Below, piece after piece: positions 11,549 to 12,365 of a stretch of 64,000 nt of DNA (positions are counted from its first letter, which is position 1; each line of letters starts with the position of its first letter). The stretch is from Escherichia coli (GTDB lineage: Bacteria; Pseudomonadota; Gammaproteobacteria; Enterobacterales; Enterobacteriaceae), in NCBI RefSeq assembly GCF_003334385.1, contig NZ_QOWN01000023.1; one strand, given 5' to 3'. Both the position numbers and the translations under genes were made by a program. The notes under the pieces were generated by a model. It had not been told where the DNA came from and made no database searches. It saw only the letters and a list, made by a program, of their open reading frames with translations.

Positions 11549-11551
11549 AAT

Positions 11552-11860
11552 ATGCCGCCCAAAGGGCGGCATTCGGGCTTACTTGCTGCTCTGAAGGTTG
11601 TTAACCACCAGTAAATTGTCGCCGGAGAGACTCCGGTTATTATTTACCTCGGTTAACAGCGCACCAGAAACAATAAGTACGATACAAAAGCACCGTATCT
11701 TCATTGTGCGGTCCATGCGAAGACCGCATCACGACAGCACCACTGGCGATATTGCCGCGATAGCAAGCGCTGTGAAACACCTGCATTTACGGCCACGGAA
11801 CATCCTTTCCTAAAGCCAGCGCCCGTTTGCGAGACGGCGGAAAGGGCCGCAGTGGATAAT
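11552..11860 (-). ncRNA. ryfA: Candidate ryfA-like transcript (about 300 nt) carrying a 24-codon ORF; strand and ends are inferred
   Basis: sseB-sseA intergenic location; weak -10-like TATTAT near 11855 (minus strand), nested hairpins, terminal hairpin GCCGCCCTTTGGGCGGC at 11553..11569; length agrees with remembered ~304-nt RyfA. Confidence 0.3.
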
Positions 11861-12351
11861 ACACTAACAGAACAATAATAACTCTCTTTTGCTTGACAAA
11901 AAGAGAGTTACTGGCGAGTATTGTCTCCGCTGAGACGCGCTTGCATTACTACGGTAATACAACCTGCTGGAAAGGCCGCGAACCGGACCAGCAACAAAAA
12001 ACCGCCTGATTTTGGCGGTTTTTTGTTTTTTAAAGGAAAATGAATTTACATGTTTAAGTAATATCTTTTACCGGTTAGAATTTTTAATTTTGAGCAGGAT
12101 TTGTTTATATTTGTCTGAATTCGGACTAATAAGCCAGGTTATTTTATTACCGAACACGGCGGAAAGGGCCGGTGTCGATAATACGCTAAATAAACAATAA
12201 TTACTCTCTTTTGCTTGACAAAAAGAGAGTTACTGGTGAGTATTGTTTTGCTGTGAAGCACCTGCGTTGCTCATGTAACACAAGTCAACCTGCTGGAAAG
12301 GCCGCGAACCAGACTAGCAATAAAAAACCGCCAAATTCGGCGGTTTTTTAT
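11831..12351 (+). repeat. PAIR-type sibling repeats: two ~200-bp direct repeat units (11831..12032 and 12151..12351), each with an internal perfect hairpin embedding TTGACA and a 3' bidirectional terminator
   Basis: Units share conserved 5' (GGCGGAAAGGGCCG...CTCTCTTTTGCTTGACAAAAAGAGAGTTACTGG) and 3' (CCTGCTGGAAAGGCCGCGAACC...AAAAAACCGCC..GGCGGTTTTTT) blocks with a diverged ~50-nt core; AT-rich spacer 12033..12150. Confidence 0.7.
12323..12351. terminator. Bidirectional intrinsic terminator (sseA 3' end / repeat unit 2)
   Basis: AAAAAACCGCC-AAATTC-GGCGGTTTTTT: hairpin flanked by A-run and T-run. Confidence 0.7.
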
Positions 12352-12365
12352 TGCCTGTAAAATAC

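Follow-up and report, generated by a model that had tools for sequence, protein, structure and literature searches.

Two TimR-family small RNAs and a single timP in the sseB–sseA gap of Escherichia coli: a K-12-type mosaic of the timPR toxin–antitoxin locus

Why is the gap between two convergent genes of Escherichia coli, sseB and sseA, far larger than two terminators need, and what are the two repeated units inside it? The question arises in a 64,000-nucleotide (nt) stretch of an E. coli genome (contig NZ_QOWN01000023.1 of assembly GCF_003334385.1), referred to here as the window, which is 99.96% identical to K-12 MG1655 over the 4.5 kb compared and has the gene order pepB, sseB, gap, sseA and yfhM. 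A preliminary description, made from the sequence alone, had put the gap at about 820 base pairs (bp), and it measures 817 bp, from the sseB stop at 11548 to the sseA stop at 12366. The same description had read the contents as a ryfA-like locus of divergent type I toxin–antitoxin design, with sibling small RNAs (sRNAs) carrying distinct targeting cores. The gap very probably holds the chromosomal timPR (ryfA) type I toxin–antitoxin locus of E. coli in a K-12-type mosaic form, in which one timP is accompanied by two TimR-family sRNAs: the distant copy 2, which is the cognate one, and the adjacent copy 1, which matches the beta allele of the toxin messenger. This identification is built on homology, gene structures, complementarity and covariation within and between species, as observed here, and the transcript ends are taken from published data.

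The locus itself is known at textbook level and opens no new biology. The genes ryfA, timP and timR are annotated in MG1655 at exactly these coordinates, and timPR has already been studied mechanistically (PMC7667032, PMC11228461, PMC13000454). In Salmonella, ryfA was renamed timP and encodes a toxic inner-membrane protein (Andresen et al., PMC7667032); the divergently encoded sRNA TimR represses timP translation, and TimR-like sequences are found upstream of timP throughout the enterobacteria (PMC7667032). Translation of timP needs a pseudoknot between stem-loops (SL) 1 and 3, together with a long-range interaction that frees the Shine–Dalgarno (SD) sequence from SL4, and Salmonella TimR binds SL2 of the timP 5´ untranslated region (UTR), disrupting the SL1–SL3 pseudoknot (PMC11228461, PMC13000454). 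What is added here is a modest, previously unreported twist: the specificity-determining cores, the non-cognate adjacent copy 1, a deletion scar and the frequency of the mosaic. No account of a K-12 timP accompanied by two TimR paralogs, or of allele-matched specificity classes, was found in the searchable literature (subscription journals and EcoCyc lay outside that scope). The preliminary description had missed the existing annotation and studies, the presence of a single timP, the non-cognate nature of the copy beside it and the fact that the hairpin around TTGACA is not transcribed.

The toxin side of the locus occupies the minus strand, in what had been noticed as a unique segment with terminator-like structure. 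The Rfam scan, which covered positions 10000–14000, gave two matches above threshold, RF00126 and RF00125. The features of the toxin messenger are as follows.

11547–11850, minus strand: the ryfA RNA, that is, the timP messenger RNA (mRNA; MG1655 b4440), matching the full RF00126 model with 314.9 bits (gathering score 80) and exactly matching MG1655 ryfA.
11579–11704, minus strand: the timP coding sequence for 41 amino acids (aa), MKIRCFCIVLIVSGALLTEVNNNRSLSGDNLLVVNNLQSSK, matching NCBIfam NF040796 (toxic_TimP) with 86.8 bits (cut-off 45) and called timP by RefSeq.
11552–11572, minus strand: the intrinsic terminator hairpin of ryfA/timP, found by a terminator scan (9 pairs, 7 of them G–C, then a T run) and corresponding to the terminal stem of the Rfam model.
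11768–11787, minus strand: the predicted TimR-binding site, ryfA nt 64–83 (AAUGCAGGUGUUUCACAGCG), which comprises the 5´ arm and loop of SL2 in its alpha allele.

Both the ryfA reading and the suggested small toxin TimP hold. The NF040796 match spans residues 1–40 of the 41, and the N-terminus, MKIRCFCIVLIVSGALL, is judged from its sequence to be a hydrophobic, signal-like segment. Term-seq ends of MG1655 (Adams et al. 2021 supplement), converted to window positions, include a 3´ end at 2654157 that falls at window position 11548, the end of ryfA. The minimum-free-energy fold places an SL4 hairpin, GCGGUCUUCGCAUGGACCGC, immediately 5´ of the AUG, and SL1 and SL3 share a 7-bp complementarity in the window, as in 12 of the 13 other ryfA sequences examined, with two registers possible in E. 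coli. The minus strand would thus yield a timP mRNA of about 304 nt with a long structured 5´UTR, encoding a 41-aa inner-membrane toxin; by analogy with Salmonella, TimP would be toxic, and repressed by TimR, in K-12 as well. A weak internal Term-seq 3´ end also lies in ryfA nt 86 (window 11765; MG1655 2653940, plus strand), in the 3´ arm of SL2 and 3 nt past the predicted duplex with copy 2 (nt 64–83); TimR-dependent cleavage might have produced it, or it may be an intermediate of decay.

The plus strand carries the two sRNA genes.

11927–12026, plus strand: TimR-family sRNA copy 1, with core T1, equivalent to ECS011/IS129 and without an annotation in MG1655; known from ECS011 reads, northern blots, Term-seq and its fold.
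12250–12351, plus strand: TimR sRNA copy 2, with core T2; MG1655 timR (b4811) is 12250–12349.

The exact match of the annotated MG1655 timR to copy 2 bears out both the proposed likeness to divergent type I toxin–antitoxin sRNA loci and the proposed adjacent TimR. For copy 1, an ECS011 read cluster covers 11927–11997, starting 6 nt past the hexamer GAGTAT (Shinhara et al. 2011, PMC3175480), and a probe specific for its core (target 11929–11963) revealed northern bands of about 95 and 100 nt (PMC3175480). A Term-seq 3´ end at MG1655 2653679, present in three lists, maps to window position 12026, and the fold of copy 1 has a terminator hairpin (z = −4.15). The corresponding end of copy 2, at MG1655 2653354, maps to 12351. 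Published K-12 data therefore show copy 1, copy 2 and ryfA all expressed, and TimR has also been detected in uropathogenic (UPEC) and avian pathogenic (APEC) E. coli (PMC13188913). The plus strand would accordingly give two TimR-family sRNAs of about 100 nt, each with its own TTGACA-17-GAGTAT promoter and its own intrinsic terminator.

Do the two sRNAs address the same target? The SL2 region of the timP 5´UTR occurs in three E. coli alleles, alpha (AAUGCAGGUGUUUCACAGCGC, the one in the window), beta (AGAGCAAGCGCGUCUCAGCGC) and gamma (AAUGCAGGCACCCCACAGUGC), and four TimR cores are found in the species: T1 (window copy 1), T2 (window copy 2), T3 and the orphan T4. Pairing was computed by windowed duplexes and contiguous-helix counts, RNAduplex on the full-length RNAs having given meaningless long-loop duplexes. 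The duplex energies are −44.5 kcal/mol for T1 with beta, −42.0 kcal/mol for T2 with alpha and −43.9 kcal/mol for T3 with gamma, against −23 to −34 kcal/mol for the non-matching pairs. In the window, the 5´ end of copy 2 makes 20 contiguous pairs with the resident alpha site, 19 of them within the annotated RNA; for copy 1 the longest helix is 11 bp (−34.0 kcal/mol) and two of the six SL2 loop nucleotides are mismatched. A matching pair is present in all four single-unit loci examined in other genomes (beta–T1 in L002, alpha–T2 in L009, gamma–T3 in L006 and L011). Judged by these pairings, the variable cores are the specificity determinants, each of the three SL2 alleles having its matching TimR core. 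The notion of sibling sRNAs with distinct targeting cores survives in this form: the two cores match different alleles of the TimR-binding SL2.

As in Salmonella, the 5´ end of TimR would pair with the 5´ arm and loop of SL2, break the SL1–SL3 pseudoknot and so block TimP synthesis. Copy 2, located 399 nt upstream of timP, would be the cognate repressor of the resident alpha SL2, and copy 1, adjacent to timP, carries the core for the beta SL2 of other E. coli lineages and is predicted to repress the resident gene weakly at best; our inference is that repression is exerted by copy 2, copy 1 being largely non-cognate. The sRNA found directly beside the timP promoter in the window is thus the non-cognate T1, and the cognate one starts at +399. 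This distal cognate is a variant of the timPR arrangement, not a failure of homology.

Two further E. coli arrangements concern the same pairing elements. A T4 gene with the core GAGTAGACGAGATACACTTGCAGTAATA and its own TTGACA-17-GAGTAT promoter (L003:1001-1095, L004:2201-2295) lies after the spacer described below, with no timP alongside, and pairs poorly with all three SL2 alleles seen, reaching no better than about −19 kcal/mol. In strain 06-00048 (L005:1769-1860), the stretch between the SL2 site and the T3 core that matches it has been lost, along with both promoters, and ISEcB1 lies alongside. The SL2 site and the T3 core are direct repeats on the DNA, and the deletion is, as read from its sequence, a natural knock-out of the timPR system.

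It is unlikely that both TimR copies are instead redundant functional repressors of the single resident timP, with the core differences tolerated through wobble-compatible pairing. Copy 1 does adjoin timP and is strongly expressed, its 11-bp helix with the resident site is accompanied by flanking helices within the −34.0 kcal/mol duplex, and many of the core differences are transitions that preserve G–U pairing. Its mismatches at two of the six loop positions of SL2 argue in the other direction, as does the uninterrupted 16–21-bp helix kept by every single-unit locus and by the other species examined that have a clear helix. In S. dysenteriae, moreover, RyfB1 lowered RyfA1 and not RyfA2, and the two targets differ in a 5-nt variable region (PMC5333039).

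The comparison with other species extends the argument from alleles to covariation. The pattern used to collect ryfA loci, GCGGTCNNNGCANNGACCGCAC, was too unspecific, most of the at least 120 loci found coming from unrelated GC-rich genomes; 13 ryfA loci were confirmed by Rfam among the matches listed, a set without a useful sample of Salmonella, Shigella, Klebsiella or Citrobacter. In 10 of them (E. whittamii, three Yersinia, four Rahnella, Erwinia and Superficieibacter), ryfA nt 64–87 forms an uninterrupted 16–21-bp helix with a sequence on the opposite strand, and at least nine different core sequences are represented, all compensated. The pairing region starts 64–81 nt upstream of the ryfA 5´ end in these 10 loci and in four E. 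coli units. The K-12-type window stands alone among the 15 toxin/sRNA pairs compared, its best partner lying at +399 and the adjacent sRNA being mismatched. No clear uninterrupted helix was seen in the other three of the 13 loci (L027, L065 and L080); the best helix of L065 is only 10 bp, at the expected position and with a gamma/T3-like core. In Yersinia similis, where TimR-type complementarity could not be clearly made out, ryfA has the sRNA family Ysr224 (RF02770, 133.9 bits; L080:4361-4467) immediately upstream on its own strand.

Several points weigh against the division of labour proposed here for the two copies. The interrupted −34 kcal/mol duplex that copy 1 keeps with the resident site leaves room for cross-repression, and duplex energies leave accessibility and any chaperone out of account. 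The Term-seq scores suggest that copy 1 is the more abundant sRNA, which would be odd for a functionless relic. The toxicity of TimP and its repression by TimR have been demonstrated for Salmonella only (PMC7667032), and the UPEC and APEC studies saw no role for the TimP open reading frame (ORF), with minimal or mild effects of timR deletion. The order of evolutionary events put forward below is, finally, read from a handful of loci.

What holds the two units together is their repeat structure, announced as two direct repeats of about 200 bp and found at 11834–12027 and 12156–12352 with 82.4% identity and a spacing of 322–326 bp. The left blocks (11834–11924 and 12156–12246) are 90% identical and the right blocks (11960–12023 and 12286–12349) 84% identical. 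A divergent centre between conserved flanks had been described; it exists (about 11925–11959 versus 12247–12285) at about 35–40 nt, not the 50 nt suggested. The features of the control regions are as follows.

11851–11926, no strand assigned: the divergent promoter region of unit 1, between the 5´ ends at 11850 and 11927, with a palindrome at 11879–11910, plus-strand TTGACA at 11893–11898 and GAGTAT at 11916–11921, and minus-strand candidates.
11993–12027, no strand assigned: the bidirectional terminator of copy 1, inverted repeat I6, with an A-tract upstream and a T-tract downstream.
12173–12249, no strand assigned: the promoter region of unit 2, with TTGACA at 12215–12220, GAGTAT at 12238–12243 and a palindrome at 12203–12232; the timR 5´ end at 12250 is 7 nt past the −10.

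Both −10-like hexamers stand exactly 17 nt past their TTGACA, as anticipated, and the published 5´ ends, 6–7 nt past GAGTAT (ECS011 at 11927, MG1655 timR at 12250), agree with the predicted promoters. The combination TTGACA-17-GAGTAT is kept in all four E. coli TimR types. Hairpins with TTGACA in the loop are also present, the proposed 11 perfect bp being in fact 12 in copy 1 (stem 11879–11890/11899–11910, loop GCTTGACA) and 10 in copy 2. Since the palindrome of unit 1 lies between the divergent 5´ ends (11850 and 11927), it is promoter DNA and belongs to neither RNA. The T3 and T4 units of other strains lack the palindrome around TTGACA, which may be a lineage-specific operator; in both window palindromes (11879–11910 and 12203–12232), a minus-strand TTGTCA overlaps the plus-strand TTGACA within the loop. 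On the minus strand, the site TTGTCA-16-TATTGT (11899–11872) would place the transcription start about 15 nt further upstream than the annotated ryfA 5´ end, and TATTAT at 11861–11856, which fits that end better, is the candidate −10 of ryfA.

The predicted terminators are equally well placed, hairpins of A-tract, GC stem and T-tract ending both units at the Term-seq 3´ ends 12026 and 12351. I6 has 14-nt arms that are 100% complementary, and another inverted repeat, I5, has 19-nt arms that are 95% complementary. Neither TimR terminator was listed by the terminator scan, the T runs being taken up in an extended A/T stem; folding and Term-seq show both. The conserved parts of the repeats would be the promoter and the 3´ stem-loop/terminator scaffold of the sRNA, and the variable core its antisense specificity element.

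A palindromic terminator ending each unit, in a structurally polymorphic locus, might also be expected of repeats that are functionless debris of terminators or repetitive extragenic palindromes (REPs). This explanation has practically no chance of being right: it is refuted by covariation and transcript data, the cores covarying with the toxin 5´UTR both in E. coli and across genera and both units being transcribed with defined ends. No REP-type Rfam match lies within 11549–12365, and the conservation of the units across thousands of E. coli genomes, together with their transcription, speaks against chance.

How does the locus compare with known systems? The timP–timR of Salmonella Typhimurium (formerly ryfA and STnc2070) is alike in its RF00126 and NF040796 matches, its divergent sRNA, the complementarity between the sRNA 5´ end and SL2, an SL4 that would sequester the SD, and a 7-bp stretch of SL1–SL3 complementarity in the window. 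It differs from the window, which has two TimR-family genes for one timP, the cognate 399 nt upstream and the adjacent copy mismatched; in Salmonella, in addition, STM2534 lies between sseA and timP. Shigella dysenteriae has two ryfA genes, each with a divergent ryfB of about 100 nt, and RyfB1 acts on RyfA1 but not on RyfA2 (Fris et al., PMC5333039). By its published description, that ryfA1/ryfA2–ryfB1/ryfB2 arrangement shares with the window the tandem units and a divergent sRNA of about 100 nt that pairs over a short variable region of RyfA with specificity for its own RyfA. It resembles the E. coli locus L007, where alpha–T2 and gamma–T3 are separated by an sseB fragment and alpha and gamma differ by a contiguous 5-nt block. 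With one RF00126 match in 10000–14000 and one timP, the window does not have the Shigella arrangement; its second ryfA is reduced to nt 1–17 and its sRNAs are T1 and T2, versus T2 and T3 in L007. Among chromosomal type I loci that are likewise duplicated, ibs/Sib, zorO–orzO and zorP–orzP, paralogous antitoxin sRNAs reportedly share a scaffold and discriminate between toxin mRNAs by a few nucleotides of the pairing region. Each antitoxin in these systems is generally described with its own toxin gene, whereas the window has one antitoxin paralog without a matching toxin gene.

How, then, did copy 1 come to stand beside a timP that it does not match? The answer is sought in three features between the units.

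12033–12141, no strand assigned: an AT-rich spacer of two-unit forms only, found after the first TimR unit in L003, L004, L007 and L010 and absent from the single-unit L002, L006 and L009.
12142–12156, plus strand: TTTTATTACCGAACA, a remnant of a duplicated sseB 3´ end at a deletion junction, with a 14-nt exact repeat of sseB 11465–11478.
12156–12172, minus strand: the first 17 nt, all that is left, of a second ryfA/timP, repeated in register with 11834–11850 and of alpha/L009-type sequence.

In L007 (strain 23S01245-7), the first unit is followed by the same spacer, an 87-bp fragment of the sseB 3´ end, and a complete second timP (gamma) with a T3 sRNA. Of that sseB fragment the window keeps no more than TTTTATTACCGAACA after the spacer, fused straight to nt 17 of a ryfA 5´ end, so a deletion that took away a second timP has left its scar as the left edge of copy 2. 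Unit 1 is itself a mosaic, alpha/L009-like to about 11827 and identical to the beta–T1 locus L002 from 11850 on, with a breakpoint at 11827–11850. Compared with a single alpha–T2 locus, the window resembles a 322-bp insertion bounded by ACGGCGGAAAGGGCCG and comprising a promoter, T1, its terminator, the spacer and the sseB remnant. A single-event origin of the mosaic cannot be derived, at least two events being needed: a two-unit locus would have lost its second timP, and recombination would have joined an alpha timP body to a beta-type promoter and TimR unit. The spacer itself has about 35% GC and a 29-aa ORF without a family match; an insertion and a remnant of a foreign neighbouring gene are candidate origins.

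The frequency of the arrangements was estimated with segments about 230 bp long that join the SL2 site to the TimR core, at 95% identity or more in 5,426 complete E. coli genomes.

alpha–T1 mosaic: about 1,594 genomes (about 29%)
beta–T1: about 2,978 genomes
adjacent alpha–T2: about 398 genomes
gamma–T3: about 580 genomes

The four counts exceed 5,426 by about 124, an excess attributed tentatively to two-unit genomes. A search with the full locus found 1,516 genomes at 99% identity or more.

What, then, does copy 1 do? Somewhat doubtful, if conceivable, is the suggestion that in these K-12-type E. coli copy 1, the more strongly detected paralog, is a naturally partner-less antitoxin, its seed fitting a timP 5´UTR allele that has gone from the locus as sequenced. 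It might then neutralise an incoming beta-type timP gained through recombination, as a form of anti-addiction or immunity, or have been recruited as a trans-acting regulator. Decidedly improbable is the proposal that copy 1 no longer serves toxin control and acts in trans on other mRNAs, its tie to timP being only historical. Its strong Term-seq signals in the three lists, the lack of a perfect cognate target within the locus and the existence of the orphan T4 core in L003 and L004 are in line with such a role. In APEC, the phenotypes of a ryfA deletion vanish when timR is also deleted, and the authors regard TimR as deleterious without its partner (PMC13188913). Set against this, copy 1 has no known target, and its T1 core is identical to the cognate antitoxin core of about 55% of E. 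coli genomes; it thus displays no visible divergence toward a new function. Recruitment in trans, if true, would explain the APEC phenotypes of TimR without its RyfA partner, and with either role the annotated timR of K-12 would be only half of its antitoxin complement.

Whatever the fate of copy 1, the reading of copy 2 as cognate and copy 1 as largely non-cognate has practical consequences. It matters which sRNA is removed in ryfA/timR deletions of K-12, BL21 and other mosaic strains, and strain differences in toxin/antitoxin pairing may partly underlie the strain-dependence of published ryfA/timR phenotypes. The allele-matched series, with three SL2 alleles and three cognate cores in one species, can be used to find the smallest number of mismatches that abolishes recognition of the pseudoknotted timP conformation by TimR.

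Older names still cover the same DNA. The second Rfam match was to IS128.

11982–12190, minus strand: match to IS128 (RF00125), 260.3 bits, running on the minus strand from the copy 1 terminator to the unit 2 promoter.

It is very improbable that the real gene here is a minus-strand IS128 sRNA to which the plus-strand repeats are mere flanks. In favour of this, besides the score, unit 2 retains an intact remnant of a ryfA-type promoter directed toward the segment. A strand-specific northern probe, however, gave no signal and there were 0 reads (PMC3175480); the original 90–95-nt signal came from a double-stranded probe and was ascribed by Shinhara et al. to the opposite strand (PMC3175480). 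The sole Term-seq 3´ end under the IS128 annotation also sits on the opposite strand, and the segment is missing from most E. coli genomes. IS128 is thus probably not a real RNA, and the segment is best taken as a stretch that would be transcribed from a leftover ryfA promoter, provided that this promoter is active. The RF00125 family may describe a non-existent RNA, the signal that founded it being most likely that of the TimR-like sRNA encoded opposite.

The names IS128, IS129, ECS011 and C0614 predate the timPR work and carry no function, and among them the evidence supports plus-strand RNAs only. The legacy candidate C0614, once the older MG1655 numbering of PMC3175480 is converted, falls at about 12167–12253 on the plus strand, where it takes in the unit 2 promoter along with the first timR nucleotides; what this early candidate detected, imprecisely, was probably copy 2. 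MG1655 has one annotated timR, yet a second expressed TimR-family sRNA adjoins timP and is still filed under the obsolete, wrong-strand IS128.

Other candidates in the gap were set aside. The repeats might have encoded small proteins, but the plus-strand ORFs 11893–12009 and 12211–12360 and the minus-strand ORF 12068–12157 have no NCBIfam match, and this reading was rejected since the two plus-strand ORFs begin upstream of the mapped 5´ ends. Sub-threshold Rfam matches to ohsC, AgrB, OrzO-P, RNAI and the rimP leader are confined to the terminator hairpins and do not represent homology. Outside the locus and unrelated to it, the pepB–sseB spacer holds a REP-like palindrome, naRNA4/CssrE, at 10625–10669, which scores 40.3 bits against a gathering score of 59.5.

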